From IMG/VR virus record IMGVR_UViG_3300025834_000005: a DNA stretch of 64,000 nt; one strand, given 5' to 3'. The stretch is from a virus. Both the position numbers and the translations under genes were made by a program. Positions 46,007 to 58,032 of the stretch are shown piece by piece (position 1 is the stretch's first letter; every line of letters begins with the position of its first letter). Under the pieces are notes generated by a model. The model was not told where the DNA came from, made no database searches, and was given only the letters and a program-made list of their open reading frames with translations.

Positions 46007-46541
46007 TATTATCGGCAACCATATCGTATAGATACTGTTTTGCAAAAATTCCTTTAATCTTTGGCGATGCTTTACTTAAAGCAACAAAAGCAATTTCTTC
46101 TCCGCCTTTTGTATAAAGAGTAACATCAATATCGCTCCACTCAACATGGCTTATAAGTGATGTTGCGTCATCAGGAACGTCATAATCTCCACTGCGAACA
46201 GTATTGGTATCCATTTGACATGGAACATTGATACCACTCATGTATAATTGAAACGTAATAGGCTCTTTAGCTGGGTCAAATGCATAAACAATATCGCTAA
46301 TATATTCAAGGTCAAAATTACAACTATCGTTATCTTCCATTTCTTTAATATTCGAGTCAATAACATTCTCCTTAATCTTACTCCTATTCGAGATAGAATC
46401 AATTATAAACTGTTTTTGGAAGTCCTCGCTACCAAGTAACTGCGCTCTTTCGTCCTCTCCAACTTGCTTATCGTTATTAAGATAGTCAAATTCTGATATC
46501 ACTTCATTTATGGCTTTAATAATTCTCTTATCAATATTCAT
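45990..46541 (-). CDS. hypothetical acidic protein
   Basis: 183-aa ORF with the phage motif upstream. Confidence 0.6.
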   Translation of the reverse strand: MNIDKRIIKAINEVISEFDYLNNDKQVGEDERAQLLGSEDFQKQFIIDSISNRSKIKENVIDSNIKEMEDNDSCNFDLEYISDIVYAFDPAKEPITFQLYMSGINVPCQMDTNTVRSGDYDVPDDATSLISHVEWSDIDVTLYTKGGEEIAFVALSKASPKIKGIFAKQYLYDMVADNIAQFK

Positions 46542-46551
46542 ATCAATATTT

Positions 46552-46564
46552 TAATATAAATACG
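46552..46564 (-). promoter_or_regulatory. phage-specific upstream motif (sense CGTATTTATATTA)
   Basis: 11 nt upstream of ATG 46541. Confidence 0.5.
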
Positions 46565-46589
46565 AGGGAAATAAATATTGTTAAAACAC

Positions 46590-46620
46590 TTGCATGTTAA
46601 TATTATATTGCATATATTTG
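46590..46620 (+). promoter_or_regulatory. Bacteroidota sigma-A-type promoter
   Basis: cTTGca-N20-TAtaTTTG, upstream of the DUF2158-like ORF. Confidence 0.6.
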
Positions 46621-46639
46621 CAGTCTAAAATATAATAAT

Positions 46640-46804
46640 ATGAGCGAGTTAAAATGTGGCGACGTAGTCGAATTAAAATCTGGAAGTCCTAAAATGACAT
46701 TAGGTATATATGACGAGGATGAGGATAGTTGGTATTGCCAATGGTTTAGAGAATCCGATCTTAATGAGGGCGATTTTTATGCTGATCAACTTAAATTGGT
46801 TTAA
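46640..46804 (+). CDS. DUF2158 (YodC)-like small protein
   Basis: 54 aa, below the track cutoff. MSELKCGDVVELKSGSPKMTLGIY...WYCQWF matches the GDVVxLKSGGPxMTV...C.WF pattern. Confidence 0.65.
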   Translation: MSELKCGDVVELKSGSPKMTLGIYDEDEDSWYCQWFRESDLNEGDFYADQLKLV

Positions 46805-46849
46805 AATAACGAATAATTAAACTTTTTTTAAAAAAATTACTATTTATAG

Positions 46850-46879
46850 TTGCAGGTTACAAAATAATGATTACTTTTG
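46850..46879 (+). promoter_or_regulatory. Bacteroidota sigma-A-type promoter of leader unit 1
   Basis: ACTATTTATAgTTGca-N19-TActTTTG. Conserved with units 2 and 3. Confidence 0.65.
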
Positions 46880-46907
46880 TACCGAAATAAAAAAATAATT
46901 AGAAACA

Positions 46908-46979
46908 ATGAGAACAATTTTTAACATAGTACCGCAACATCAACCACAACAATTGAAATCTTTTCAATCGAATGGCTGA
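46908..46979 (+). CDS. leader peptide 1 (MRTIFNIVPQHQPQQLKSFQSNG)
   Basis: Conserved context AGAAAcaATGAGA. The run Pro-Gln-His-Gln-Pro-Gln-Gln matches the downstream tRNA-Pro/His/Gln genes. Confidence 0.6.
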   Translation: MRTIFNIVPQHQPQQLKSFQSNG

Positions 46980-47008
46980 ACTATGTAAAAAATAAGCATA
47001 CATAATGA

Positions 47009-47042
47009 TCCCCTTTAATTGAAAGATTAAAGGGGATTTTTT
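47009..47042 (+). terminator. intrinsic terminator (attenuator 1)
   Basis: 11-bp stem tcccctttaat/attaaagggga plus T6. Lies 30 nt after the leader stop and 3 nt before the first tRNA-like gene. Confidence 0.8.
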
Positions 47043-47044
47043 AT

Positions 47045-47131
47045 ATAGGCGTAGACCTGTAGTTGGTAGCAGTCCTGATTTGGGATCAGGCGTAGTAAAA
47101 TACCTCGTGAGTTCGAGCCTCACCGCTTATA
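47045..47131 (+). tRNA. atypical tRNA-like gene, anticodon UGG (Pro codons), with Leu-like D-arm and 16-nt variable region
   Basis: Acceptor ataggcg/cgcttat. Anticodon arm cctga-tttggga-tcagg. T-arm gtgag-ttcgagc-ctcac. No nucleotide left for position 26. Confidence 0.5.
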
Positions 47132-47142
47132 CAAATTTTTAA

Positions 47143-47667
47143 ATGATTTATATGGAAAAAATTAATAATATTATGATTGTCGCTGTTAATAAAGGATATT
47201 ACGCCAATGAAAATGGTGATATATTCTCAGTGAAGAAAAAGTTAATATTAGGAAAGTCAAAAAATGGTTATCTTCGTTTTTCGATTAGATGCAATGGATA
47301 TAGAGAGGTTGTCTTCGTTCACAAATTTGTAGCATATTTAAAGTATGGCGACAAGATGTTTGAAGATAATATTGAGGTTAGGCATTTTAATGGCGATTCA
47401 TCAGATAATTCATTTGAAAATATATTACTTGGGACACACTCAGATAATATGCAAGATATTTCAAAAATAGTGCGGATAACAAAAGCCTTAATAGCATCAA
47501 AAAAAGTAAGGGCTTTTGATGACGACACTGTTAATGAAATATTAAATGATAGAAAATTTGGAATGACATATAAAGACCTTTGCGCTAAATATGATACGAG
47601 TAAGTCAACGTTGAGTTACTTTTTCAATCATGCATATTATAGTGGTCTCAGAGAATTGAAAGAGTGA
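47143..47667 (+). CDS. HNH homing endonuclease
   Basis: VRHFNGDSSDNSFENILLGTHSDN (HNH_3-type) plus C-terminal helix-turn-helix. Inserted between tRNA genes. Confidence 0.8.
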   Translation: MIYMEKINNIMIVAVNKGYYANENGDIFSVKKKLILGKSKNGYLRFSIRCNGYREVVFVHKFVAYLKYGDKMFEDNIEVRHFNGDSSDNSFENILLGTHSDNMQDISKIVRITKALIASKKVRAFDDDTVNEILNDRKFGMTYKDLCAKYDTSKSTLSYFFNHAYYSGLRELKE

Positions 47668-47673
47668 ATATAC

Positions 47674-47747
47674 AGGGTAGTTATGCAGAGACTATACAAC
47701 GCAAGTTTGGAACTTGCGGTTCGTGGGTTTGAATCCCACCTACCCTA
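47674..47747 (+). tRNA. atypical tRNA-like gene, anticodon UGG, degenerate D-arm (no GG) and T-loop tttgaat (no C56)
   Basis: Acceptor agggtag/ctaccct. Anticodon arm gcaag-tttggaa-cttgc. T-arm gtggg-tttgaat-cccac. Confidence 0.45.
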
Positions 47748-47768
47748 CAAATTATTAGTTTGTAATAT

Positions 47769-47841
47769 AGAGTAGTATATCAATTGGCAGATTACCGCAT
47801 TTGGGATGCGGAGGTTCTGGGTTCGAGTCCCAGTTACTCTA
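47769..47841 (+). tRNA. tRNA-Pro (UGG)
   Basis: Acceptor agagtag/ttactct. Loop tttggga. T-arm ctggg-ttcgagt-cccag. D-loop has GG. Confidence 0.75.
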
Positions 47842-47882
47842 CTGATTATCAATTAGTTGATAGTTATTAAATGGTGTTTGTA

Positions 47883-47957
47883 GCTTAAATGGATAAAGCG
47901 CATGCCTGTGAAGCATGTACATGCGAGATCGTACCTCGTCTAACACCCTAATTTTAA
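47883..47957 (+). tRNA. tRNA-His (GUG) with G-1:C73
   Basis: Extra 5' G pairs with C73. Loop ctgtgaa. T-loop atcgtac (A54/U58 swapped). Confidence 0.75.
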
Positions 47958-47967
47958 ATTAAAGATC

Positions 47968-48732
47968 ATGTATTACGTTGTACAGAAGAATGTTTTTAGA
48001 GAAGAAAATTACGATAATTTGATTATCGCTTTGAATCGGTTAGAGTTGCCTTATGAAATCGTTGATGTGCTACCATTCGTAGACACCTTCGAATTCAAGA
48101 CAACCAGAAAGGATGTATTTCCTTTTGGTGCTGTGAAAATGTCGAGAATTGCCAAAGAATTGGACTGGAATCCAGGCTCTCAATTGTGTGACAATCATGA
48201 TTATAACGTATATAGTAAGTATTATAAGGAGAACTTACTTAATTACGATTCAAAGATCATTAAATTCGGTGATGACTTCTTTCAAACAGAAAGGTTCTTT
48301 GCAAGACCAACATTAGATACGAAAGTGTTTACAGGTAAAGTATTCGACATGGGCGAGTGGATTGAATTCAGAGATAATTCCTTTGCCAATGGACATAGCA
48401 CTTTACTGAACGCCGATACAGAAATTCAGATTTCTTCTGTTAAGAACATTCAGAACGAAATAAGATTCTGGATTGTGAAGGGCGAAATCGCCACAGCAAG
48501 TCAGTATTCTCTGGGTGGAAGATTCTGTGTGAATGCAAACGTTGATCAATCGGCATATGACTTTGTAAACAGAATGATAAAGATATTCGAATTAAACGAC
48601 ACCTTTATCATGGATGCATGCCTTGTTAATGGCGAATACAAAATAGTTGAATGCGGTTGCACTAATAGTGCTGGCTTCTACAGAGCAGACATGCAAAAAC
48701 TGCTTATGAAATTGGAAGACGCTTTCAATTAA
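47968..48732 (+). CDS. ATP-grasp-like protein (tentative)
   Basis: 254 aa. FARPTLDTKVFTGKVF, EIRFWIVKGEI, ECGCTNSAGFY resemble phage R2K-type ATP-grasp proteins. From memory only. Confidence 0.45.
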   Translation: MYYVVQKNVFREENYDNLIIALNRLELPYEIVDVLPFVDTFEFKTTRKDVFPFGAVKMSRIAKELDWNPGSQLCDNHDYNVYSKYYKENLLNYDSKIIKFGDDFFQTERFFARPTLDTKVFTGKVFDMGEWIEFRDNSFANGHSTLLNADTEIQISSVKNIQNEIRFWIVKGEIATASQYSLGGRFCVNANVDQSAYDFVNRMIKIFELNDTFIMDACLVNGEYKIVECGCTNSAGFYRADMQKLLMKLEDAFN

Positions 48733-48739
48733 TATAAAT

Positions 48740-48812
48740 TGTTTCGTGGTGTAATTGGTAACACGTCTGACTCTGAATCAGTTGAGTGCAGGTTCGATCC
48801 CTGCCGAAACAA
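48740..48812 (+). tRNA. tRNA-Gln (CUG)
   Basis: U1-A72 acceptor tgtttcg/cgaaaca. Loop ctctgaa. T-arm gcagg-ttcgatc-cctgc. Confidence 0.75.
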
Positions 48813-48823
48813 CTAAACTATAT

Positions 48824-48895
48824 TGCCCTGTTATGTAATGGTTAGCATACGACACTTTGAATGTCGGAGTCATGGTTCGAGTCCATGCAGGGCAA
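48824..48895 (+). tRNA. tRNA-Gln (UUG)
   Basis: Acceptor tgccctg/cagggca. Loop ctttgaa. T-arm catgg-ttcgagt-ccatg. Confidence 0.8.
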
Positions 48896-48904
48896 CATTT
48901 TCAC

Positions 48905-48935
48905 TTGCATGTTATTTAAAAAATAACTACTTTTG
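48905..48935 (+). promoter_or_regulatory. Bacteroidota sigma-A-type promoter
   Basis: cTTGca-N20-TActTTTG. Confidence 0.6.
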
Positions 48936-48948
48936 CATAAAAAATTTT

Positions 48949-49152
48949 ATGAACTCAGAAAAATTATTGCTACAGATTAAGAAAGATTTAACACCGTTAG
49001 ATATTGGGAAGATAATTGTATTACCATGCAAGGGAGACCCAAGGGTACTACAAAATGAAGTATCGTTTGCAATAATGGGAGAGAATGAAGGCATTATTCA
49101 ATATATTGTAACTGTTGAGAAACTTAATAACAAAACCAATGGGAAACTATAA
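48949..49152 (+). CDS. hypothetical protein
   Basis: The ATG at M43 of track ORF 48823-49152 is chosen because the 5' part overlaps tRNA-Gln. Confidence 0.5.
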   Translation: MNSEKLLLQIKKDLTPLDIGKIIVLPCKGDPRVLQNEVSFAIMGENEGIIQYIVTVEKLNNKTNGKL

Positions 49153-49540
49153 CCTATTCCTTGATGATTTTAGATCGCCAGAGGACGCTTTCTATTACAT
49201 GCGCAATAGCGATTATTTGAAACTTGAATGGGTAATCGTTCGAAGTTATAATGAGTTTGTGAGCTATATCGAGAAGAATGGTATGCCAGCTACGATTAGC
49301 TTCGACCATGATCTTGCCGATATTCATTATGAACAACAAACAAATATCAACTATGATAATGCTGACGATGATGAGAAGACTGGATATCATTGCGCTAAAT
49401 GGCTTATCGATTACACAATGGATAACGATGTTGAATTACCAGCATATATGTTGATACATTCAATGAATACAGTTGGTAGCCGAAACATTAAATCATTGTT
49501 TGAAAACTACAAGCATTTTGTAAAAAAAGGAGCATCATAA
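49139..49540 (+). CDS. receiver-like domain protein (possibly the cyclic-phosphate-processing REC family)
   Basis: NLFLDDFRSP...ISFDHDLA...TGYHCAKWL...HSMNTVGSRNI pattern. Recalled from memory, unverified. Confidence 0.45.
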   Translation: MGNYNLFLDDFRSPEDAFYYMRNSDYLKLEWVIVRSYNEFVSYIEKNGMPATISFDHDLADIHYEQQTNINYDNADDDEKTGYHCAKWLIDYTMDNDVELPAYMLIHSMNTVGSRNIKSLFENYKHFVKKGAS

Positions 49541-49556
49541 TGATACTCCTTTTTTG
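49522..49556 (+). terminator. intrinsic terminator
   Basis: aaggag.atca-taa-tgat.ctcctt hairpin plus T6. Confidence 0.65.
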
Positions 49557-49563
49557 TTTATAT

Positions 49564-49577
49564 TAGTATTTATTATA
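49564..49577 (+). promoter_or_regulatory. phage-specific upstream motif (TAGTATTTATTATA)
   Basis: 12 nt upstream of ATG 49589. Confidence 0.5.
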
Positions 49578-49588
49578 AATTTGATATT

Positions 49589-50587
49589 ATGAGTGATAAG
49601 TATAGCAAAAATAGGCTCTTCGAAATGATGGGCAGGGTGGATAATAATTTCAATGAGGAGTCAACAGCCTCTGATGGTGGCTATCATAGTAAGCATGTAA
49701 ATAATCCACAATCAGCTGGAAAAGAAATACAGAATTGGCTAAATGGCATAGGTCAGGAAAAAACAACGCAAATATATTATAGAATGGCTGACGAATTTAG
49801 AGACATAGTAATTGATGACTCTGATCTATCATATATGCGTTCAGAATCGCCTGATGATTTGGATTATGGCTTTGTTGAAGCATTGGCATGTTATAAGCAT
49901 GACTATAATGAGGATAGTCCTTATATGTACTTCGTTAATTTCTTACTAAGCACTAAATATAGATTCAATCCAAAAACCACATTTAGTTATCGTGCAGAAG
50001 ACTTGGATGAGAAAGGTAAAGCTATTTATAATACTCTTTCAAATGGTGATGACCATTATGGTGAATTGTATGAAGATTTGCTTTATGATCAGGCTGAACA
50101 AGATGATAACAATAATGACCGCAACGGTTATGATGAAAGCGTTAAAAAAAGACTCTCAACTATTTTTGAAATTAAAAACATCGAAGCTCAGAGAAATGGT
50201 AAGAAGAAAGTTTTAAACGAAACTAAGCTTTTTGGCATGATTAATAAACTTGAAAGTAAACGCAAGCTCAATGAATGGGGTGATGAAAATGACTCTGATT
50301 ACGAGAATGATTCAAGTAATTATAGTGAACAAGGTGATTATGATGATCACGAGGGCAGTAGCAGCAATTATGGCGCAAATGACCGTGAAGCCGACAATAC
50401 AGATCATATGGATGAGGAATTATCAACAGAAGACCCTCATTTTCAAATAGGGTCTTTGAGACAGAAACTTAACTCTCATTTAGATCAGGTTCAAAGACTG
50501 TTCACTTATCTGGATGAAAAACCTTCAATAGAAGCTGTTAAGGGGTTTGTAGGAAGCGTTCTAAATGGTTGGGAAAAAGAAAAATAA
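49589..50587 (+). CDS. RLFE-leader family protein B (very acidic)
   Basis: N-terminus MSDKYSKNRLFEMMGRVDNNF. 332 aa, D/E/N-rich. Confidence 0.65.
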   Translation: MSDKYSKNRLFEMMGRVDNNFNEESTASDGGYHSKHVNNPQSAGKEIQNWLNGIGQEKTTQIYYRMADEFRDIVIDDSDLSYMRSESPDDLDYGFVEALACYKHDYNEDSPYMYFVNFLLSTKYRFNPKTTFSYRAEDLDEKGKAIYNTLSNGDDHYGELYEDLLYDQAEQDDNNNDRNGYDESVKKRLSTIFEIKNIEAQRNGKKKVLNETKLFGMINKLESKRKLNEWGDENDSDYENDSSNYSEQGDYDDHEGSSSNYGANDREADNTDHMDEELSTEDPHFQIGSLRQKLNSHLDQVQRLFTYLDEKPSIEAVKGFVGSVLNGWEKEK

Positions 50588-50626
50588 AAATATTTTAAAC
50601 TTTTTTGAATTATTTACTATTTATAT

Positions 50627-50656
50627 TTGCAGGTAATAAAAAAAGCATTACCTTTG
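50627..50656 (+). promoter_or_regulatory. Bacteroidota sigma-A-type promoter of leader unit 2
   Basis: ACTATTTATAtTTGca-N19-TAccTTTG. Confidence 0.65.
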
Positions 50657-50709
50657 TACCGAAATTAATATTTACTTCCTTTAGGGAATCAAAAAAAAGA
50701 ATAGAAACG

Positions 50710-50844
50710 ATGAGAAATTTACTTAACATGGCACATTACATAGTCAATTCTAATGGGAATCAAAAGAACATGGAATTATTGGCAGTGGAACAGGTCAACC
50801 TCCTATTATGGGCGGATGAGGATACATTGTGCAATGCTGGTTAA
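50710..50844 (+). CDS. leader peptide 2 (MRNLLNMAHYIVNSNGNQKNMELLAVEQVNLLLWADEDTLCNAG)
   Basis: Conserved AGAAAcgATGAGA context. 21 of 44 codons are Leu/Glu/Ala/Val/Trp/Asp, the identities of the downstream tRNA array. Confidence 0.6.
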   Translation: MRNLLNMAHYIVNSNGNQKNMELLAVEQVNLLLWADEDTLCNAG

Positions 50845-50869
50845 GTAGAGTTTAATAATAATATTAAAT

Positions 50870-50902
50870 AAAACCTCCAGCATACGTGTTGGAGGTTTTT
50901 TG
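50870..50902 (+). terminator. intrinsic terminator (attenuator 2)
   Basis: aacctcca/tggaggtt stem plus T7. 44 nt before tRNA-Asp. Confidence 0.8.
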
Positions 50903-50945
50903 TTTATATGCGTTTTTTGACATGTTGGAATTGAAATTAAAAATT

Positions 50946-51017
50946 GGTGCTGTTGTCCAGTGGTAGGATGACTCGTTGTCTGCGAGAGGGTCGTGGGTTC
51001 GAATCCCATCAGCACCG
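50946..51017 (+). tRNA. tRNA-Asp (GUC), unusual U37
   Basis: Acceptor ggtgctg/cagcacc, G73. Loop ttgtctg. T-arm gtggg-ttcgaat-cccat. Confidence 0.65.
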
Positions 51018-51081
51018 CAAAACGTTTATCGGAAGGTAAACGCAGCAGAGTTTAATAGTAACGTTTTAAAATAACTCTGAT

Positions 51082-51153
51082 AGTTCCGTAGTTTATATTG
51101 GTGTGAATCCACGCAGGGTCGTGGGGTTGCTGGTTCAAATCCAGTCGGGACTG
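51082..51153 (+). tRNA. tRNA-like gene of undetermined identity (6-nt anticodon loop as folded)
   Basis: Acceptor agttccg/cgggact. D-loop has TTGGT. T-arm gctgg-ttcaaat-ccagt. The central arm ccacg-cagggt-cgtgg does not give a canonical loop. Confidence 0.35.
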
Positions 51154-51211
51154 CTTTAGCATTATGAGAGTACTTACCCTTAAGGTATGCCAACCTAAAT
51201 TGCTTTTTTAT

Positions 51212-51286
51212 ACTATCATAGGGGAGTTGGTCGTCCCTGCAAGCCTGTCACGCTTGAGATCACGGGTTCGAATCCCGTTGGTAGTG
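51212..51286 (+). tRNA. tRNA-Asp (GUC)
   Basis: Acceptor actatca/tggtagt, G73. Loop ctgtcac. T-arm acggg-ttcgaat-cccgt. Confidence 0.7.
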
Positions 51287-51318
51287 CGAGTTTCATAAAC
51301 GATATGAAACATTTAGAT

Positions 51319-51393
51319 GCCGCTGTTGACAAATTGGAATAAGTCACCACCCTTTCAAGGTGGATATTGCGAGTTCGAACCTCGTCGGCGGTA
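51319..51393 (+). tRNA. tRNA-Glu (UUC)
   Basis: Acceptor gccgctg/cggcggt. Loop ctttcaa. T-arm gcgag-ttcgaac-ctcgt. Confidence 0.7.
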
Positions 51394-51402
51394 CAAATTT
51401 AT

Positions 51403-51483
51403 GGCTTAGTGGTGGAACGGTATACACAGTAGTTTCAAAAGCTACCGCCACACGGCATGAGAGTTCAAATCTCTCCTGAGTCA
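51403..51483 (+). tRNA. tRNA-Leu (CAA), long variable arm
   Basis: Loop ttcaaaa. Variable arm gcc-acac-ggc. T-arm gagag-ttcaaat-ctctc. Confidence 0.75.
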
Positions 51484-51488
51484 CATAT

Positions 51489-51564
51489 GCTTCTTTCGCT
51501 TAGTTGGTTTTAAAGCGTCTGTTTTACACACAGAAGACCGATGGTTCGAATCCATCAAGAAGTA
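51489..51564 (+). tRNA. tRNA-Val (UAC)
   Basis: Acceptor gcttctt/aagaagt. Loop tttacac. T-arm gatgg-ttcgaat-ccatc. Confidence 0.75.
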
Positions 51565-51573
51565 CAATTACAA

Positions 51574-51660
51574 GGCCTCGTGATGAAATTGGCAGTACAT
51601 AGCAGACTTAAAATCTGCTGCTCTGAGAAGGGCGTGTGGGTTCGAAGCCCATCGAGGTCA
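51574..51660 (+). tRNA. tRNA-Leu (UAA), long variable arm
   Basis: Loop cttaaaa. 17-nt variable region. T-arm gtggg-ttcgaag-cccat. Confidence 0.75.
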
Positions 51661-51670
51661 CAAATTATAT

Positions 51671-51743
51671 GGATCGGTAGACCAACGGTAGAGTCAGTAG
51701 CCTTAGAAACTATTCAGTGAGGGTTCGAATCCCTCTCGATCTA
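51671..51743 (+). tRNA. tRNA with anticodon UAG (Leu codons), Leu-like D-arm but only a 5-nt variable loop
   Basis: D-arm gac-caacggtaga-gtc. Loop cttagaa with a C-A mismatch at the closing pair. T-arm gaggg-ttcgaat-ccctc. Confidence 0.55.
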
Positions 51744-51754
51744 CAATATTTAAT

Positions 51755-51843
51755 GGGGAATTGGTGGAATTTGGTAGACACGCTTGTCTAAGAAGCAAGT
51801 GCGAAATAATAGTAGCGTGTGAGTTCGAGTCTCACATTCCTCA
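51755..51843 (+). tRNA. tRNA-Leu (AAG, A34), long variable arm
   Basis: Loop ctaagaa. 19-nt variable region. T-arm gtgag-ttcgagt-ctcac. Confidence 0.65.
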
Positions 51844-51931
51844 CGCAATCAATGGGAACGCATGTGCTAAGCAGATGGGAATCAGACAGGGAGCATGCCA
51901 AGAATCTTGTACAGGGTTGGAGATTCATTTA
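51844..51931 (+). ncRNA. unassigned structured spacer inside the tRNA array (two hairpins)
   Basis: gcatg(t)..catgc stem (51860-51898) and gaatct-N13-agattc stem (51902-51926). No cloverleaf could be folded. Confidence 0.3.
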
Positions 51932-51932
51932 T

Positions 51933-52006
51933 GGGGTCGTAGCTTAATTGGCTAAAGCACTTGATTTGCACTCAAGAGAGTGAGGGTTCGATGCCCTTCG
52001 ACTCCA
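51933..52006 (+). tRNA. tRNA-Ala (UGC) with G3:U70
   Basis: Acceptor ggggtcg/cgactcc gives G3-U70. Loop tttgcac. T-arm gaggg-ttcgatg-ccctt. Confidence 0.8.
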
Positions 52007-52034
52007 CTGATAATCAGGAGATTATCTATTTCAC

Positions 52035-52107
52035 ACGCATGTACCAGAGCGGCTAATGGCACAGCTTCCAACCCTGATGTTCGTGGGTTCGAGTCCTACC
52101 ATGCGTG
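52035..52107 (+). tRNA. tRNA-Trp (CCA), weak anticodon stem
   Basis: A1-U72 and G73, as in bacterial tRNA-Trp. Loop ttccaac. T-arm gtggg-ttcgagt-cctac. Only 3 Watson-Crick pairs in the anticodon stem. Confidence 0.55.
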
Positions 52108-52111
52108 CCTT

Positions 52112-52156
52112 AAGAATAAATGTTGCAAATTTTTGTAACATTTATTCTTTTTTTTC
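52112..52156 (+). terminator. strong intrinsic terminator ending the tRNA array
   Basis: 13-bp stem aagaataaatgtt/aacatttattctt plus T8. Confidence 0.85.
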
Positions 52157-52176
52157 GTATAATTAAGAAAAACAAT

Positions 52177-52422
52177 ATGCGTGATCATAGGGAAATAATA
52201 AATGAATGCTGTGCTGATGTTAATTGCGAAGGTATAATTGAGATCGCTGAATCAGCAATAGGAAAAGCATTAAAAGAATATAATGATGAAATTGTTGAAA
52301 CGCTTCAGAATGCCTCAAATCTTTACACTGTTATTGACGGCAATTACGTTATCCAGAAAATGGATTTAGATCACATAATTGCAGACTTGGAATACAATAC
52401 TAAATTTAAATTATATGAATGA
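52177..52422 (+). CDS. hypothetical protein
   Basis: ATG (M20 of the track ORF) chosen because the 5' part lies inside the terminator. Confidence 0.5.
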   Translation: MRDHREIINECCADVNCEGIIEIAESAIGKALKEYNDEIVETLQNASNLYTVIDGNYVIQKMDLDHIIADLEYNTKFKLYE

Positions 52423-52588
52423 ACTTTTTAGTTTCCTAAACCAACAAAATGTCGATAGATTGATCGGCTATAGTTTTGTTTTCTTGGTGTCATTATATCT
52501 TATCACTGAATGTGTATCGGTTATTTTCAGATCAGCGTTTGCCGCTATTAGGCGTTCAAGAGTGGAAAAACCAAAAACAGAAAAATAA
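52415..52588 (+). CDS. small membrane protein
   Basis: ATGAATGA overlap with the upstream stop. Hydrophobic helix LIGYSFVFLVSLYLI. Confidence 0.5.
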   Translation: MNELFSFLNQQNVDRLIGYSFVFLVSLYLITECVSVIFRSAFAAIRRSRVEKPKTEK

Positions 52589-52591
52589 TAT

Positions 52592-53527
52592 TTATAAAGA
52601 AAATCCTTTTGATGATGACTTAGTGCCATTTAATACATGATAAATCGATGTTTCGTCTAATTTATGATCTTTACAAAATAGTTTTACACTGGCAAAAGTA
52701 TATTGTAAGTTATCACGATAAAGTATATATTCTTTTCCATGATCTATTTCTATGCGATTTCTCAACTCTGATAGTGAAAAATTTTGTTTATTGAAAGCAG
52801 TCCAACCATTAAGAAACGTCATTTTTAATGTTCTTAAATATAGAGGCATCATCATTTTAGCGTTTAATTTATGTGATTTACAAAATTCAGTGAAATTAAT
52901 TACCCTGTGAAATTTATTATCAGTTAAATTGTAAAAAATATAATTATACCATTTTTTACATAAAGAATATTTTATCTTAACATCTGCATAGTATTTGTCA
53001 TTATTTATAATCGTACTAATTGTTGGCGAGGACAGATTATAATATTTAGAAATTTCACGATAATTTAATCCGTTGTTATATTTATCAAAAATACTAATTA
53101 TATTTAAATCGGTTAAATTTTGCTTGGAATCTGATATTGCTTTTTTATGGCTATCCCTCATTTTTCCTGAATTAACAATACCTGCTAATGGCGTCGAGTT
53201 ATATCCGTTGTTATATGATTCATATTTATCTATATAATATTGTTCCCTAATCTGCGAATTATTTTTTGTTATTTCTTCAAATAGTATGAATTCCCATTTA
53301 CTAAAATCGCATTCGTATTTATTAAATGAGCGTTGTAATTTTTCGGAATGGTGCGAATTAGTCCTTAAATTGTAAATATGTCTCGCAATTCTTATATACA
53401 CGCCAAGTTTATTTATTGTCGATCCTATGTAATATTTGTTAGTAATCATATTTCTAATTCCATAAACATATGGCTTATTTTTATTATCAGCAGTAATACA
53501 TTCAATATTTATATTTCGTATGTTCAT
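52592..53527 (-). CDS. GIY-YIG homing endonuclease
   Basis: VYGIRNMITNKYYIGST (GIY-x10-YIG), R..H, REQYYIDKY, NGYN. C-terminal helix-turn-helix YREISKYYNLSSPTIS. Confidence 0.8.
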   Translation of the reverse strand: MNIRNINIECITADNKNKPYVYGIRNMITNKYYIGSTINKLGVYIRIARHIYNLRTNSHHSEKLQRSFNKYECDFSKWEFILFEEITKNNSQIREQYYIDKYESYNNGYNSTPLAGIVNSGKMRDSHKKAISDSKQNLTDLNIISIFDKYNNGLNYREISKYYNLSSPTISTIINNDKYYADVKIKYSLCKKWYNYIFYNLTDNKFHRVINFTEFCKSHKLNAKMMMPLYLRTLKMTFLNGWTAFNKQNFSLSELRNRIEIDHGKEYILYRDNLQYTFASVKLFCKDHKLDETSIYHVLNGTKSSSKGFSL

Positions 53528-53538
53528 AATTAATCTTT

Positions 53539-53550
53539 AATATAAATACG
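53539..53550 (-). promoter_or_regulatory. phage-specific upstream motif (sense CGTATTTATATT)
   Basis: 12 nt upstream of ATG 53527. Confidence 0.5.
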
Positions 53551-53590
53551 TATAAAATTTCTAAAAATAAAGACTATTGAAAAATAATGT

Positions 53591-53621
53591 TTGTAAATGC
53601 AAAAAAAAATACATATCTTTG
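53591..53621 (+). promoter_or_regulatory. Bacteroidota sigma-A-type promoter
   Basis: gTTGta-N20-TAtcTTTG. Confidence 0.55.
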
Positions 53622-53646
53622 CATTCAAATAAAAAAAATATGACTT

Positions 53647-54333
53647 ATGCTTATATTGAGTAACGGCAAGAAAGATTATTATGATGGTGTTGTTCAAACG
53701 ACAGGTATTGATAAAACAATCGTTTATAACAGGCATCAAAATGATATCGAAAACTCGTTTAAGGATTACAAAAACCTACCAAAGGATTTGATTAAACTTG
53801 TTGAAGGTATCACAGCTTTCAATATCGATCTTAAGAAAACCACAATCGAATTTCAGGGGATATATGTGATTGCTTTTTGTGGCAAAATGCATGTATTATG
53901 GCATCTATTAAATAAAACATCATTCAACGATGTTAATCCTGAATCAATCTTCACATATAATTTAAATGATGTGAAGGGTATTGTTAAAACCATTGCATGG
54001 CATCAACAGGGAGACGTTACAGAGGCTTATAAAGCCATTACTAATTACGACCCTATGAGTCTTCATCGTTTACATAATACGCCTGTATTCGCCATTAATA
54101 CGTCATTCGGAAGATATGGCGGACGTGACTCAAACTTTATTATAAATCCTATATTGAAACCCTACAGATTTTATAAGGTTTTCAATTCCTTCGCAGCTTT
54201 ACAGGAAATTCAGATGTTTATCTCTGGTGTATTAGGCACAAATGAAAATAGTATCATTGAATTAAGTGATCAATCAAAAATAGCAAAACATGGATTCGAC
54301 AAAAACTCCTTTAGAAAAGAAAAAAGAACCTGA
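53647..54333 (+). CDS. hypothetical protein
   Basis: 228-aa ORF downstream of a host-type promoter. Confidence 0.6.
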   Translation: MLILSNGKKDYYDGVVQTTGIDKTIVYNRHQNDIENSFKDYKNLPKDLIKLVEGITAFNIDLKKTTIEFQGIYVIAFCGKMHVLWHLLNKTSFNDVNPESIFTYNLNDVKGIVKTIAWHQQGDVTEAYKAITNYDPMSLHRLHNTPVFAINTSFGRYGGRDSNFIINPILKPYRFYKVFNSFAALQEIQMFISGVLGTNENSIIELSDQSKIAKHGFDKNSFRKEKRT

Positions 54334-54390
54334 TAATTGCTGCGGTAAGACCGCTAATGCGATTGAACAGAGAAAGAATAATAAAGCAAT

Positions 54391-54421
54391 AAAAAAGGGA
54401 AGCTAAGTGCCTCCCTTTTTT
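54391..54421. terminator. bidirectional intrinsic terminator
   Basis: A6-gggaag-ctaagtg-cctccc-T5 between convergent genes. Confidence 0.6.
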
Positions 54422-55355
54422 AGTATTTTGCGAACATTTTAAAATCGTTCTTGGTTAACGCTGAATCCACAGTGTCAACATTACCTCTTATTTTCTCGTA
54501 AAGTTTCTTAGCTAATTTAGCATTATAAATTAAAAGATTCACCATTTGAGGATTAAACTCATATTTTTCGATATTTTTCAAATATTCATCGTCATTGGGA
54601 CTGTACATGAATGTTAAAGCTAAATTTCTATCTTGTGAAAAGAATGAAAAAGCGAAAATATCACCATTGCCAACACCTCTCATTTCAACCTTAACGAATT
54701 TGAATTTGGTTGGTTGACTTTCGCCATTCGATCTATCAACAACCAACAAGGGTAATTCAGGTTTATTCATGAATTTACCAAACATATTATCGAGAACATC
54801 TTGTCTTATTTTTCTTGTTCTTGAATCAGGTCTATCGGTTTTAAATGCTTTTGAACCCATTTCAGCACCGATCTCATTAATCTTAGCACTATCGACAGCA
54901 TTGATGCCATCGTGTGAGCTATTACCAATAGTATCGTCCTCTGTACCATCGCTGAGGTTAGCTTCATCCATTTCTGAATCAGTGTTAAAGAAATTTTCTC
55001 TCTTATCTACGAAATCGCCCCATGAGGTTACTAAAAATTGTCTCTCCTTTGTATCGTAAACAATTGTTTTCTCATATGTATCGCCCATATTTATATACAA
55101 GCCGATAGCGTCTCTCCAATAATTATCAACAGATTCGTTTTCATCAGTTATTGTTTCAACGCCATAACCCTCTAAATACTTGTTAGCATTGTCCATAGCA
55201 TCTTCAACAGAATTTTGTGATAGATGTTCTCCGTTAAGTTTCTCAGCATATCTCTCAATAACATTGCTTTCGTCATCGATTTCATTCACGCTTCCGAAAT
55301 GTTGATCAATTCTTCCCATTACCTCAAATAACCTTTGTTTACTATTTTTTTTCAT
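54420..55355 (-). CDS. RLFE-leader family protein C (acidic)
   Basis: N-terminus MKKNSKQRLFEVMGRIDQHF. Confidence 0.65.
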   Translation of the reverse strand: MKKNSKQRLFEVMGRIDQHFGSVNEIDDESNVIERYAEKLNGEHLSQNSVEDAMDNANKYLEGYGVETITDENESVDNYWRDAIGLYINMGDTYEKTIVYDTKERQFLVTSWGDFVDKRENFFNTDSEMDEANLSDGTEDDTIGNSSHDGINAVDSAKINEIGAEMGSKAFKTDRPDSRTRKIRQDVLDNMFGKFMNKPELPLLVVDRSNGESQPTKFKFVKVEMRGVGNGDIFAFSFFSQDRNLALTFMYSPNDDEYLKNIEKYEFNPQMVNLLIYNAKLAKKLYEKIRGNVDTVDSALTKNDFKMFAKY

Positions 55356-55365
55356 GTTGATATTT

Positions 55366-55797
55366 TTAATTAAAACTTACTGTGCATGTATTATTTTTAA
55401 AATCGAATTGAAGATCAGTAGCGTATAAAGTACCACCGTTTGTTAGATTGGCTTCACCAATTATGAATCTCCATTTATATTCGTCTATGTTCTTTTCGGT
55501 ATTCGATATTAATTCATCTGTGTTCTTGTCTCTGAGTTCAAGACTAAATGTTCCTTCCAATCCTATGATAACTATTTTCATATACCCGATACCTTGTTCA
55601 TCAGGATTAAACCCAATACCCCAATTAATAACGATATTGCTGTCATTAATGTCTGATTCATATTCAGATGATATGTTGTCATAGTTGAAAAAATGAGATT
55701 GCTCAATAACGGATTTGAATGTGAACTGACCATTAGCGTATACGTAATTTTCGCTTATTAGCCTGATTTCATCGTTGATAATCTTATTAATATTCAT
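55366..55797 (-). CDS. hypothetical protein
   Basis: Start moved to M14 (MNINK...) because the phage motif lies inside the first 13 track codons. Confidence 0.5.
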   Translation of the reverse strand: MNINKIINDEIRLISENYVYANGQFTFKSVIEQSHFFNYDNISSEYESDINDSNIVINWGIGFNPDEQGIGYMKIVIIGLEGTFSLELRDKNTDELISNTEKNIDEYKWRFIIGEANLTNGGTLYATDLQFDFKNNTCTVSFN

Positions 55798-55811
55798 ATT
55801 GTCAATATTTT

Positions 55812-55824
55812 TATAATAAATACT
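55812..55824 (-). promoter_or_regulatory. phage-specific upstream motif (sense AGTATTTATTATA)
   Basis: 15 nt upstream of ATG 55797. Confidence 0.5.
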
Positions 55825-55854
55825 TATTTTTTTCAAATTATTTACTATTTATAC

Positions 55855-55885
55855 TTGCACATGTGATTTATTTGAATTACTTTTG
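55855..55885 (+). promoter_or_regulatory. Bacteroidota sigma-A-type promoter of leader unit 3
   Basis: ACTATTTATAcTTGca-N20-TActTTTG. Confidence 0.65.
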
Positions 55886-55913
55886 TGCCAGTTAAAATAA
55901 TTAAAAAATAGAA

Positions 55914-55991
55914 ATGATGAATGCAACACTTAAATACGGAAAGACTACTAAATCTTATAAAAAATATAAGATGAAGAAGGACTGTGTGTAA
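55914..55991 (+). CDS. leader peptide 3 (MMNATLKYGKTTKSYKKYKMKKDCV)
   Basis: Conserved AGAAAtgATGA context. 8 Lys (AAA and AAG) and 3 Tyr (TAC and TAT) codons precede the Lys/Tyr tRNA array. Confidence 0.6.
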   Translation: MMNATLKYGKTTKSYKKYKMKKDCV

Positions 55992-56013
55992 GTGAACTAT
56001 ATATAATATATTC

Positions 56014-56048
56014 AAAAACCCAGTCTTAATTTAAGTCTGGGTTTTTTT
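56014..56048 (+). terminator. intrinsic terminator (attenuator 3)
   Basis: cccagtctt-aattt-aagtctggg plus T7. 15 nt before the first tRNA. Confidence 0.8.
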
Positions 56049-56062
56049 ATGTTAAAAAATTC

Positions 56063-56134
56063 GCTCCTATAGCTTAATGGTAAAGCCTTCGACCTTTAAT
56101 CGAATGACCCCTGAATCAGTATCAGGTGGGAGCA
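56063..56134 (+). tRNA. tRNA-Lys (UUU)-like variant with C33 and a non-canonical T-loop
   Basis: Acceptor gctccta/tgggagc. Loop cctttaa. T-arm cctga-atcagta-tcagg. Confidence 0.55.
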
Positions 56135-56150
56135 CAGAGTATAATAAGTC

Positions 56151-56221
56151 GCTTCTATAGCTCAATGGTAGAGCTTGTAACTTTTAATTATAAGACCTCG
56201 GTTCGATTCCGAGTAGGAGCA
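56151..56221 (+). tRNA. tRNA-Lys (UUU)
   Basis: Acceptor gcttcta/taggagc. Loop cttttaa. T-arm ctcgg-ttcgatt-ccgag. Confidence 0.8.
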
Positions 56222-56230
56222 CAAAATATT

Positions 56231-56304
56231 GCCTTCGTAGCTTAAATGGATAAAGCTACGCCCTCTTAAGGCGAGGACTGTGGGATCGTACCCCACCGAG
56301 GGCA
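56231..56304 (+). tRNA. tRNA-Lys (CUU)
   Basis: Acceptor gccttcg/cgagggc. Loop ctcttaa. T-arm gtggg-atcgtac-cccac. Confidence 0.75.
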
Positions 56305-56379
56305 CTAACTGAAACACGAATCCAAGTTTCTGTCAACTCATTCGCTTAGAGTGAGAAGAGTTTAGAGGATTCATATATT

Positions 56380-56473
56380 GGGAGTCTAACGGCAGCAGAC
56401 TGTAAATCTGCCCTGCTTTAAAAAATTGTCGTACTGGAATAGCAGTAGAAAGGTTCGAATCCTTTGGCTCTCA
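56380..56473 (+). tRNA. aberrant tRNA-Tyr (GUA)-like gene: no room for a normal D-arm and a 37-nt variable region
   Basis: Acceptor gggagtc/ggctctc. Anticodon arm gcaga-ctgtaaa-tctgc. T-arm aaagg-ttcgaat-ccttt. Only 8 nt between acceptor and anticodon stem. Confidence 0.4.
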
Positions 56474-56484
56474 CAAATAAATAA

Positions 56485-56566
56485 GGGTAAGATGGTAAAT
56501 TGATTAAATCAGAGGCTTGTAACACCTTCGTCATCGACTATGTAGGTTTGATTCCTACCTTACCCA
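56485..56566 (+). tRNA. tRNA-Tyr (GUA), long variable arm
   Basis: Perfect acceptor gggtaag/cttaccc. Loop ttgtaac. Variable cgtcatcgactat. T-arm gtagg-tttgatt-cctac. Confidence 0.7.
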
Positions 56567-57221
56567 CAATGATCGCAGTAATTATATTTAAGAATTTCTG
56601 CGATGTCTGTTCTTTGAAATATTTTTGGGTTGATGTATCGATGATACAAAATTCGATTCCATGTTCAATACATGCTTGAAATTTACGATCATCGTTATTT
56701 TGAATTTTAACCAGTTTATCTTGACCGTAGATTGGCTCGTAATGAAATATTCCATTTAGCTCGAAAGCAAGTTTTAATGACGGAATATAAATATCAAGTT
56801 CTGAATTAATAGCTTCTTTACGATTGAAATGAATTTCAAGACAAGGATAAAGCTTTGTAAGTTCTATTTCAAGATATACTTCAAGTTTTGATCGTCTATT
56901 GCCAGTCGTCTTATGTTTATTATTATAAGTGGCTGCACATGACTTACAACAGAAGTTATTAACATTATCTTTCACTGATGAAAATTTCTTTAAAAAGGAT
57001 ATTCCACAATTATTGCATTTTACGTTTATCTTTGTAATCTGTGATAGTGCCATGCATTTTCTTGAGCAAAAATCAATACTGTTAGTCGTGTTACCTTTCA
57101 AATAGTACTTAATTAGTTTCTTTTCAACAAAAAAGGTATTTTCACATGTTAAGCATTTGCATGGCAATTTGTCAGTGCCCTTAGCTTGGTCGTATTCAAT
57201 ATCAATGTATAATGGATTCAT
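56538..57221 (-). CDS. zinc-finger + PD-(D/E)xK (Vsr/DUF559-like) homing endonuclease
   Basis: Two CxxC...FCSxxC modules, then ELDIYIPSLKLAFELNGIFHY, paralogous to LDFKHKNKIIEYNGNYWH in the terL intein. The TAG stop and last 29 nt are antisense to tRNA-Tyr. Confidence 0.7.
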   Translation of the reverse strand: MNPLYIDIEYDQAKGTDKLPCKCLTCENTFFVEKKLIKYYLKGNTTNSIDFCSRKCMALSQITKINVKCNNCGISFLKKFSSVKDNVNNFCCKSCAATYNNKHKTTGNRRSKLEVYLEIELTKLYPCLEIHFNRKEAINSELDIYIPSLKLAFELNGIFHYEPIYGQDKLVKIQNNDDRKFQACIEHGIEFCIIDTSTQKYFKEQTSQKFLNIITAIIVGKVGIKPT

Positions 57222-57229
57222 ATTCTTTT

Positions 57230-57241
57230 ATTATAAATACT
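57230..57241 (-). promoter_or_regulatory. phage-specific upstream motif (sense AGTATTTATAAT)
   Basis: 9 nt upstream of ATG 57221. Confidence 0.5.
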
Positions 57242-57316
57242 ATCAATTTTGAAATTCGAAACACCATACGCCCACAAATATTTTATTAATAGAAATTACT
57301 TTAAAATTAATTAGTT

Positions 57317-57556
57317 ATGGAAACATTAGTAGAGATCATCAAAGGAAATCGTGCAATTATGTCGCACGTATGTAATGGTAAGGCTTATTTTACCATCGAG
57401 ACAATGAATAACAAGTATCAACTTGAAATGGATACCACTGATCGTGATTGGAAGACAACTCATATGCAAACTGAGTATGCTGCAATTACTTTGATGCGTT
57501 GGATTCGAAGAGGTTTAGACGAAAAGGACGGTACATTTATATCACTATATGAGTAA
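57317..57556 (+). CDS. hypothetical protein
   Basis: 79-aa ORF followed by a terminator. Confidence 0.55.
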   Translation: METLVEIIKGNRAIMSHVCNGKAYFTIETMNNKYQLEMDTTDRDWKTTHMQTEYAAITLMRWIRRGLDEKDGTFISLYE

Positions 57557-57582
57557 CTTATAATCAGCTTGGAAACAAAAGT

Positions 57583-57612
57583 GCGATTGAAGAAATTTAA
57601 TCGCCATTTTTT
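57583..57612 (+). terminator. intrinsic terminator
   Basis: gcgatt-N10-aatcgc hairpin, then caT6. Confidence 0.55.
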
Positions 57613-57651
57613 GTAACCTTTTCACTTTCTCAACGTATAAGAATGAAAATT

Positions 57652-57726
57652 GGCTCATTATATTAGCGGTCAGATGGCGGAATTCTAAACTCCGAGACGT
57701 GGGTTCGAGTCCCACACGAGCCACCA
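57652..57726 (+). tRNA. suppressor-type tRNA, anticodon CUA (reads UAG), with genomically encoded CCA
   Basis: Acceptor ggctcat/acgagcc (one A-C mismatch), A73, then cca. D-loop agcggtca. Anticodon arm cggaa-ttctaaa-ctccg. T-arm gtggg-ttcgagt-cccac. Confidence 0.6.
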
Positions 57727-57744
57727 AAATTTATAAATAAGTAA

Positions 57745-58032
57745 ATGAATAAAATAATTGCGGAAGATTTATATTCTGAAAGTCCTGATAAATTTAAGGT
57801 GTTTAGAGAATGGGGTGCTGTTAATGCGTCAGTTACAAAATTTTTGTATAACGCAACACCTAAGACATTTATATTTCTTTTTGGTGAAGATGAAGGAATG
57901 AGACTTTGGGGACATTTTTGTAATGACTGCAATAGAAAAGATTTTACGTTATTTAAGACGTATTTATCGTCAACACAATTTAATGATCTGCTTGTGAATA
58001 TCCATTACAATGAATTAATATTCTGCTTATGA
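57745..58032 (+). CDS. hypothetical protein
   Basis: 95-aa ATG ORF. Confidence 0.55.
   Translation: MNKIIAEDLYSESPDKFKVFREWGAVNASVTKFLYNATPKTFIFLFGEDEGMRLWGHFCNDCNRKDFTLFKTYLSSTQFNDLLVNIHYNELIFCL

Follow-up and report, generated by a model that had tools for sequence, protein, structure and literature searches.

The leaders trpL, hisL, leuL and pheL, together with the multivalent thrL and ilvL, are leader-peptide attenuators of amino-acid biosynthetic operons. The pheM leader attenuates pheST, an aminoacyl-transfer RNA (tRNA) synthetase operon, and in Salmonella the proline-codon leaders mgtP and mgtL reportedly serve mgtCBR and mgtA, with mgtP said to sense the decoding of proline codons. 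Phage tRNA genes are usually taken to be passive aids to codon usage or decoys for tRNA-cleaving defences (for example PMC11555353), and the control of their expression is largely unknown. Here we describe a 64,000-nucleotide (nt) stretch of viral DNA (IMG/VR record IMGVR_UViG_3300025834_000005, hereafter the window), in which a promoter, a short open reading frame (ORF) with consecutive Pro, Gln and His codons and an intrinsic terminator precede tRNA-Pro, tRNA-His and tRNA-Gln genes (Unit 1). Judged from the DNA and from related loci, Unit 1 is probably a ribosome-mediated (leader-peptide) transcription attenuator placed before a phage tRNA operon. Leader-peptide attenuation is a known mechanism and its application to phage tRNA operons would be new; a full-text search of the literature, not exhaustive in its coverage, returned no description, for phages or for cells, of tRNA genes controlled by a leader peptide.

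Like the trp, his, leu, thr, ilv and phe leaders, Unit 1 combines a short leader carrying regulatory codons, a terminator before the structural genes and a mutually exclusive candidate antiterminator, and the position of the ribosome would decide between the two structures. Phage leaders that contain codons for several amino acids recall those of ilvGMEDA (Ile/Leu/Val) and thr (Thr/Ile). In contrast to amino-acid operon leaders, the genes presumed to be controlled are tRNA genes, accompanied by an HNH endonuclease and an ATP-grasp gene, rather than biosynthetic enzymes, and the product acts on the decoding sensor itself; moreover, the phage leaders mirror a whole tRNA array, occur in several copies per genome and share a conserved N-terminus. 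Because its targets are tRNA genes, the Unit 1 element falls outside the amino-acid operon class. With pheM and mgtP/mgtL it has in common an attenuation that lies beyond amino-acid biosynthesis, pheM also controlling a component of the translation apparatus, but those leaders control protein-coding genes and none controls the tRNA genes that read its regulatory codons. T-box riboswitches likewise report the state of one tRNA species through transcription attenuation, and control genes for tRNA charging or amino-acid supply. However, T-box RNA recognizes uncharged tRNA directly, with no ribosome involved, by means of a single specifier codon and the T-box sequence, whereas the phage element is an ORF.

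The leader ORF of Unit 1 (46908–46979; all features of the units in the window lie on the plus strand) comprises 23 codons, MRTIFNIVPQHQPQQLKSFQSNG. It begins approximately 23 nt past the inferred transcription start, and homologous ORFs are kept in 20 or more loci. The N-terminal part, MRTIFNIV, is followed by PQHQPQQ, encoded by the in-frame regulatory codons 9–15 (CCG CAA CAT CAA CCA CAA CAA; 46932–46952), which specify Pro, Gln and His only. With a P+Q+H background of 0.07 in the long ORFs of the window, seven consecutive codons of this kind have a probability of about 8e-9. The original prediction, which was made from the letters of the window, had described these codons as a C/A-rich island in AT-rich DNA, and both coordinates and composition check: the G+C content is 33.7% over the window and 48% in the 21-nt codon stretch, where C+A reaches 90%. 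Its 7-mer ATTGAAA at 46952–46958 (region 1), the second copy at 47018–47024 (region 3) and the complement TTTCAAT at 46962–46968 (region 2) are all found at those positions. Region 2 is, however, separated from the stop codon TGA (46977–46979) by 8 bases, not by the 9 nt claimed. A layout of 7-mer, reverse complement and 7-mer, with the last copy in the 5′ arm or loop of the terminator, arose in 15 of 5,000 dinucleotide shuffles when the upstream part was shuffled and the terminator kept, and in 85 of 5,000 when the whole region was shuffled.

The strong intrinsic terminator (regions 3 and 4; 47007–47044) consists of GATCCCCTTTAATT-GAAA-GATTAAAGGGGATT and a T run. Its hairpin (47007–47038) has 14 pairs, a GAAA loop and a folding energy of −18.5 kcal/mol, and starts 27 nt past the stop codon. 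It is identical in the closest relative, L069 (a 237.6-kb contig with an ATP-grasp protein 95% identical to that of the window), and four of its pairs covary over the Pro/Gln/His family of leaders.

The genes behind the terminator are those that had been claimed, namely three tRNA-like genes with UGG anticodons, an HNH gene, tRNA-His, an ATP-grasp-like gene and two tRNA-Gln. The first of the tRNA-like genes is degenerate. This tRNA-Pro(UGG)-like gene (47051–47132) directly follows the terminator and was detected by ARAGORN at a relaxed threshold only; Rfam makes no call for it, whereas its counterpart in L069 is called normally. The HNH homing-type endonuclease gene (47143–47667; PHROG 59; Pfam HNH_3, 7e-9) is followed by tRNA-Pro(UGG) at 47674–47748 (ARAGORN; not called by Rfam), a further tRNA-Pro(UGG) at 47769–47842 and tRNA-His(GUG) at 47874–47948 (both confirmed by Rfam), the gene for an ATP-grasp protein of the R2K clade (47968–48732; Pfam R2K_3, 2e-15; phrog_7313), tRNA-Gln(CUG) at 48740–48813 and tRNA-Gln(UUG) at 48824–48896, which ends the unit. 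Among the residues of the Unit 1 leader, 8 of 22 match the identities of the downstream tRNAs (1.5 expected, p = 7e-5), and the anticodons of the operon can decode all eight matching codons (8/8).

Transcription of Unit 1 appears to start at a promoter spanning 46837–46879, made up of TTACTATTTATAGTTGCA (46837–46854), which holds the −33 TTG (46850–46852), and the −7 element TACTTTTG (46872–46879) at proper spacing. The pair TTG/TTTG (−33) and TAnnTTTG (−7) is what we take to be the Bacteroidota housekeeping promoter consensus. The same arrangement precedes Units 2 and 3, two sister units in the window: the 18-mer TTACTATTTATANTTGCA has exactly three copies in the window (46837, 50614 and 55842), one ahead of each unit and each with a TAnnTTTG element behind it, and the sequences upstream of the three units can be aligned. 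A scan of viral contigs for the exact 18-mer gave 32 loci, all of them chance matches lacking the unit architecture. From the Unit 1 terminator to the last tRNA-Gln, a scan for TAnnTTTG found no unit-type promoter; the next promoter-like site is a −7 element at 48928–48935. The T run is followed directly by the first tRNA or tRNA-like gene, both in Unit 1 and in L069. Since the unit holds no internal promoter of this type and its first tRNA abuts the T run, expression of the tRNAs would need read-through of the terminator.

Megablast of 16 kb of the window against cultured and deposited phage genomes found no relative. Relatives were reached through the ATP-grasp protein inside Unit 1, which served as the handle and gave 36 loci in viral contigs and 68 in metagenome contigs. 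Contigs with related loci measure up to 675 kb, and tblastn also reached LR756501, an uncultured phage of 735,411 bp. The ATP-grasp gene is kept within this tRNA operon in all relatives; comparison of the protein with solved structures gave no informative match. Cultured jumbo phages of Brevundimonas, Rhizobium and Caulobacter gave tblastn matches to the ATP-grasp protein as well; in Kabachok, the sole one inspected, the gene does not lie in a tRNA cluster, and this phage is for that reason no model system. Units were then identified by structure, as a short ORF whose end lies at most 70 nt ahead of a terminator that tRNA genes closely follow, or as the shared N-terminal motif together with a T run. 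Leaders were chosen by structure and N-terminal motif, and composition was no criterion. The family statistics below cover 23 units, three in the window and 20 in related huge-phage contigs, with the LR756501 unit as an extra.

Over these 23 units the excess of leader residues matching the downstream tRNAs is 162.7, compared with 15.1 ± 17.9 when the tRNA sets are permuted, and none of 20,000 permutations reaches the observed value. The match is visible leader by leader. L037 (MKNSVNILLQQLQLLQL…; LLQQLQLLQL) precedes three Gln and four Leu tRNAs, L068 (…TQQQQQQQT…) five Gln, L045 (…SISTTITSSSTTAW…; STTITSSSTT) Ile, Thr and Thr, and L052 (…LLLSCLLLVV…) Cys, three Val and five Leu. L059 (…FDFAAFAFFAEEDD…) precedes Phe, three Glu, three Asp and Ala; L065 (…NISQSFSMNPSHFNGISINVQSP…) precedes Gln, Pro, Phe, Asn, Val, Ile, Ser and His; and LR756501 (…TPAPAVAFRRGTGTGTGTCVPAGCG…; TPAPAVAFRRGTGTGTGT) precedes four Arg, three Thr, two Val, two Ala, three Gly and Pro. 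Single leaders contain up to 6–9 different amino acids and up to 20 different triplets. Homologues of the Unit 1 leader occur in L069, L034, L035, L040, L041 and L044, in which P, Q and H appear in changed order but as an unchanged set; Q15, for instance, is P in L069. The gap from stop codon to terminator is 17–40 nt in all units, mostly 22–31 nt.

Units 1–3 are identical in build, and each leader mirrors its own tRNAs (Asp/Glu/Leu/Val/Ala/Trp in Unit 2; Lys/Tyr/Thr in Unit 3). Unit 2 (50614–52149) comprises a promoter, a leader (50710–50844; MRNLLNMAHYIVNSNGNQKNMELLAVEQVNLLLWADEDTLCNAG), an attenuator terminator (50870–50899), eleven tRNA genes (50946–52109; two Asp, Glu, Leu with anticodons CAA, UAA, UAG and AAG, Val, Ala, one Trp-like and one odd) and a final terminator (52112–52149). 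The four Leu anticodons of this unit are accompanied by four kinds of Leu codon in its leader. Unit 3 (55842–56567) comprises a promoter, a leader (55914–55991; MMNATLKYGKTTKSYKKYKMKKDCV), a terminator (56015–56045) and a tRNA array with three tRNA-Lys genes at 56063, 56151 and 56231 and two further tRNA-like genes, both degenerate, whose anticodon loops read GUA and UGU/GUA. The central claim of the original prediction, a translated Pro/His/Gln leader and a terminator gating a matching tRNA operon, thus finds strong support at the sequence level, mainly from these sister units and from the units of relatives.

The end of each leader is also related to its own terminator. Paired with the 5′ arm of its own terminator, a leader has a mean duplex energy of −10.6 kcal/mol, compared with −7.0 kcal/mol for the arms of other units, and none of 20,000 permutations is as low. 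The partner of the 5′ arm usually lies within the last 30 nt of the leader ORF, and families with unrelated terminators each have matching leader ends: GAATGGGG with arm CCCCATTC in L034, L035, L040 and L041; GAACGGGG with CCCTGTTC in L044, which differ by one compensatory pair; GTCGGG with CCCGAC in Unit 2 of L034, L035, L040 and L044; ATGCTGG with CCAGCAT in Unit 2 of the window and L069; and GGGTGTGGGT with ACCCACACCC in LR756501. In the ancestral register of the antiterminator 87.5% of cells are paired, compared with 21–62% when the partner is slid; the shuffle control was not exceeded.

A footprint model was built in which the ribosome is an unpaired stretch from −15 to +13 of the A site and the RNA is folded only as far as the terminator loop, before the 3′ arm exists. 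In this model the mean energy sequestering the 5′ arm is −3.0 kcal/mol with no ribosome, −7.0 kcal/mol with a ribosome stalled on the regulatory codons and −2.5 kcal/mol with a ribosome at the stop codon; the in silico difference between stalled and stop states, computed on family means, has p = 1.3e-5. In the stalled state own arms are predicted to be bound at −6.96 kcal/mol and foreign arms at −3.78 kcal/mol (p = 6.6e-6). The model reproduces the three-state behaviour of classical attenuators.

For Unit 1 itself, the minimum free energy of 46900–47045 is −34.3 kcal/mol (z = −6.1). The ribosome-free leader structure (46917–46993; −15.2 kcal/mol) has an outer stem, 46917–46930 with 46980–46993, around an inner 1:2 hairpin, 46952–46958 with 46962–46968, and the terminator folds separately. 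By itself the 1:2 hairpin is weak (−2.6 kcal/mol). L069 has CTTGAAG as region 1 and CTTCAAT as region 2, so that the A–U pair 46958–46962 becomes G–C and 1:2 is preserved, a single compensatory change. The outer stem has no covariation support in an alignment judged by eye, because its CATA:TATG core hardly varies, and RNAalifold on seven Pro/Gln/His leaders returned the terminator as the sole consensus structure.

The proposed arrangement of four regions stands in part. Its 1:2 pairing holds, weakly and with the one compensatory change in L069. The 7-mer 2:3 pairing is weak on its own: of the terminator it involves only the apex, with the loop and the final three bases of the 5′ arm, and it becomes credible only inside a longer duplex. 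In this best 2:3 alternative, the candidate antiterminator 5′ strand (region 2 in its extended form, 46961–46975; TTTTCAATCGAATGG) pairs with 47011–47025 (UUUUCAAUCGAAUGG with CCCUUUAAUUGAAAG; 13 pairs, two 1×1 mismatches, −8.4 kcal/mol). The duplex contains GAA:UUU and GG:CC, remains of the relatives' GAATGGGG:CCCCATTC antiterminator (GAATGG:CC..TTC). Its ΔΔG (difference in free energy) is −5.65 kcal/mol compared with −2.6 ± 1.3 for shuffles, with p only about 0.03. In the folds of 46900–47045, whose comparison had been proposed as a check, the terminator always wins at equilibrium; the decision would therefore have to be kinetic. In classical attenuators the terminator likewise wins at equilibrium. 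Scanned by A-site codon, the predicted sequestering of the Unit 1 arm is −3.8 to −5.6 kcal/mol at P9–Q14 and about −1 to −2 kcal/mol elsewhere, and the profile modelled for L069 has the same peak. With the 5′ arm alone in the duplex test, Unit 1 was the worst unit (−2.3 kcal/mol), and adding the loop changed the ranking.

The architecture, the leader–tRNA match, the leader–terminator complementarity and the lack of a further unit-type promoter inside the unit are read directly from sequence and comparison, and they fit the following scheme. Host RNA polymerase would start at the Bacteroidota-type promoter and transcribe the 23-codon leader, which a ribosome would translate while the polymerase nears the terminator. 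If codons 9–15 are decoded quickly, the ribosome would reach the stop codon and cover region 2, the terminator would form and the tRNA genes would not be transcribed. If usable tRNA-Pro, tRNA-His or tRNA-Gln is scarce, the ribosome would stall on these codons, covering region 1 and freeing region 2 for pairing with the terminator (5′ arm and loop); transcription would then continue into the three tRNA-Pro, one tRNA-His and two tRNA-Gln genes and the HNH and ATP-grasp genes. Units 2 and 3 would apply the same control to other tRNA sets. Since the operon's product would relieve the stall, the circuit would amount to negative-feedback control of the supply of exactly those tRNAs. From the features above we infer that the leader is translated, that its translation is coupled to transcription, which way and how strongly the unit responds, and that the signal is tRNA supply rather than amino-acid supply.

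Shortage of tRNA might arise from depletion of host tRNAs by defence nucleases or from a mismatch in codon usage. Phage tRNAs counter tRNA-degrading defences such as PtuAB, which acts on tRNA-Tyr, and PrrC, which acts on tRNA-Lys (PMC11555353). Negative feedback fits the use of phage tRNAs against defences of this type, and Unit 3 has Lys and Tyr-like genes. For the huge phages of Bacteroidota as a group we favour, with somewhat less assurance than for Unit 1, a codon-resolved and demand-driven supply of tRNA, in which a composite leader would sample the operon's own tRNAs, the set would be made only when one of its members is limiting, and leader and tRNA set would co-evolve as a module.

Several observations weigh against reading Unit 1 as a working attenuator. 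The phage is known from metagenomes only, and both the footprint size and the use of equilibrium folding are modelling assumptions. Of the 285 matching codons, operon anticodons can decode 243, compared with 226 expected from codon usage, and because this excess is small the claim of a match is kept at the amino-acid level. A promoter of a phage-specific kind may lie inside the unit. The antiterminator of the Pro/Gln/His family shows a single compensatory pair. In L069, where region 3 is unchanged, the change in region 2 that keeps 1:2 costs 2:3 one pair. The value for stalled Unit 1 (−5.3 kcal/mol) is no better than the mean for foreign arms (−4.4 kcal/mol), predicted sequestering in Unit 2 equals that by foreign arms (−1.2 and −1.2 kcal/mol), and in Unit 3 it is −0.3 against −2.0 kcal/mol at the chosen stall site, yet −7 to −8 kcal/mol for modelled stalls at codons 4–13. 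The window and L069 keep five of the eight ancestral antiterminator pairs and have lost three. Since the antiterminators of Units 1–3, each taken alone, are weak (those of Units 2 and 3 at most stall sites), the window copies are the least convincing members of a well-supported family.

These lost pairs and the indifference to foreign arms, together with the degenerate first tRNA-Pro, the inserted HNH gene and a frame change relative to L034 that shifted the stop codon, are what would be expected if Unit 1 were an eroded attenuator whose antiterminator has decayed, so that its terminator allows a low, constant level of read-through or shuts the operon off regardless of leader translation. We consider such erosion unlikely. 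The pairing that replaces the ancestral one (TTTCAAT:ATTGAAA with GAA:UUU and GG:CC) is rarer than chance in both layout and energy, the modelled stall profile peaks on the regulatory codons in the window and in L069, a compensatory change maintains the 1:2 hairpin, and the regulatory codons remain within the P/Q/H set, including the exchange of Q15 for P.

A functional attenuator of the same build could instead read amino-acid supply through tRNA charging, so that tRNA synthesis would be tuned to the nutritional state of the cell. A stalled ribosome cannot distinguish a missing from an uncharged tRNA, as in textbook trp and his attenuation, and a stall therefore also signals amino-acid starvation, in which extra tRNA would not help; this weighs against tRNA supply as the signal, and it makes feedback on starvation futile. 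The leaders, moreover, track the tRNA content of each operon down to isoacceptor families, as with the Leu anticodons and codons of Unit 2, and the role of phage tRNAs against tRNA-degrading defences (PMC11555353) points the same way. We hold amino-acid supply to be an improbable signal.

It is very doubtful that the leader is an ordinary small gene whose terminator merely ends it while the tRNAs have their own starts, or that its translation acts on the stability or processing of the precursor. Intrinsic terminators are common after small genes, phage promoters of another type are possible, and the conserved N-terminus could mean a function of the peptide. Such a gene would nevertheless leave unexplained why the leaders of 23 units have compositions that go with their tRNA sets, why leader ends are complementary to their own terminator arms and why the distance from stop codon to terminator is fixed, and there is no room for a promoter where a tRNA abuts the T run and none of the unit type within Unit 1. 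A ribosome-independent, T-box-like element, in which leader triplets would pair directly with tRNA anticodons and stabilize an antiterminator, can draw on the complementarity between those triplets and the operon anticodons but is extremely improbable, as the triplets share a single reading frame, which runs from a conserved ATG to a stop whose distance from the terminator is fixed, and number up to 20 kinds per leader rather than a single specifier, and as the leaders match neither the T-box model (E ≤ 0.1, 46500–58000) nor any other Rfam family.

If leader-peptide attenuation does operate here, it extends to the genes of the translation adaptor itself and supplies a natural means of sensing decoding capacity for as many as nine amino acids simultaneously. 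Such control would explain how huge phages with dozens of tRNA genes could avoid constitutive tRNA synthesis, and it predicts that codon-specific stalling induces the matching tRNA set. Leader sequences could be used to annotate which tRNAs form one transcription unit in uncultured phage genomes, and could serve as compact, programmable sensors of tRNA availability.

Beyond the regulatory codons, the leaders share a 5′ untranslated region, ATAGAAAYRATG, and the N-terminus M(K/R)N(L)xNI (window 46897–46931, 50699–50733 and 55903–55937; L034–L068; LR756501), which holds even where the ATP-grasp proteins are only approximately 46–50% identical; initiation, an outer RNA stem and the nascent peptide are candidate roles for it. 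The leader of Unit 2 contains 14 extra codons (MAHYIVNSNGNQKN; 50728–50769) relative to that of L069 (MRNLLNI-ELLAV…), which do not match the operon tRNAs, and an internal ATG at codon 21, so a shorter leader may be used.

A motif GTTCTTTGA(A/C)A occurs 3–20 nt past the attenuator terminator in 12 of the 23 units, all in relatives, and also in LR756501. Sites include L034:14709–14720, L044:8762–8773, L065:18108–18119 and LR756501 (L139, minus strand, 52–41), with a degenerate copy after the Unit 2 terminator of the window (50913–50928); the background of TTCTTTGA is 54 copies per 949 kb. The motif seems to resemble the boxA antitermination sites of rrn operons, which act with NusB/NusE; by analogy, processive antitermination may carry the polymerase through the tRNA array after it clears the attenuator. 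Unlike the rrn boxA systems, Unit 1 has no TTCTTTGA-type motif after its terminator and Unit 2 only the degenerate copy.

Some tRNA genes of these operons are unusual. The HNH gene of Unit 1 is an insertion relative to L069, in which three tRNA-Pro genes adjoin, and the tRNA-Pro copy beside it carries a few substitutions and a 2-nt insertion relative to L069 and falls below standard detection thresholds. In Unit 2, 52035–52109 is called tRNA-Gly(UCC) by ARAGORN, yet aligns with the operon-ending tRNA-Trp(CCA) of L069, L034 and L040; its loop, CTTCCAAC, may permit a CCA reading, which would fit the one Trp codon in that unit's leader. Between the two tRNA-Asp genes lies a tRNA-like gene with a 6-nt anticodon loop (51082–51154; ARAGORN anticodon 'gg'; Rfam tRNA, 33 bits), and at the equivalent place L035 has an odd tRNA with a four-base anticodon, 'gatt'. 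In L040 (8689–8925) and L044 (approximately 8770–9005), a structured RNA of approximately 237 nt separates the first tRNA-Pro from the attenuator terminator; it does not occur in the window, its ends form a tRNA-like acceptor stem and T arm, and its minimum free energy is −78 kcal/mol (z = −3.8). Rfam contains no family for the leaders or for the 237-nt RNA of L040.

Transfer-messenger RNA genes lie a few kilobases downstream of the tRNA operons in L034 (20044–20394) and L035 (17518–17873). In the window, 57652–57726 encodes a tRNA with a CUA anticodon (amber-suppressor type, ARAGORN 'Pyl'), which lacks a leader peptide, is preceded by a hairpin of its own and hints at stop-codon recoding somewhere in this phage lineage. 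Between Units 1 and 2, 49115–49540 encodes a protein with a Pfam cREC_REC domain (cyclic-phosphate processing receiver domain, 3e-22). The name of the family suggests that cyclic phosphate ends are processed, in keeping with tRNA damage and repair as a theme of the DNA near these operons.

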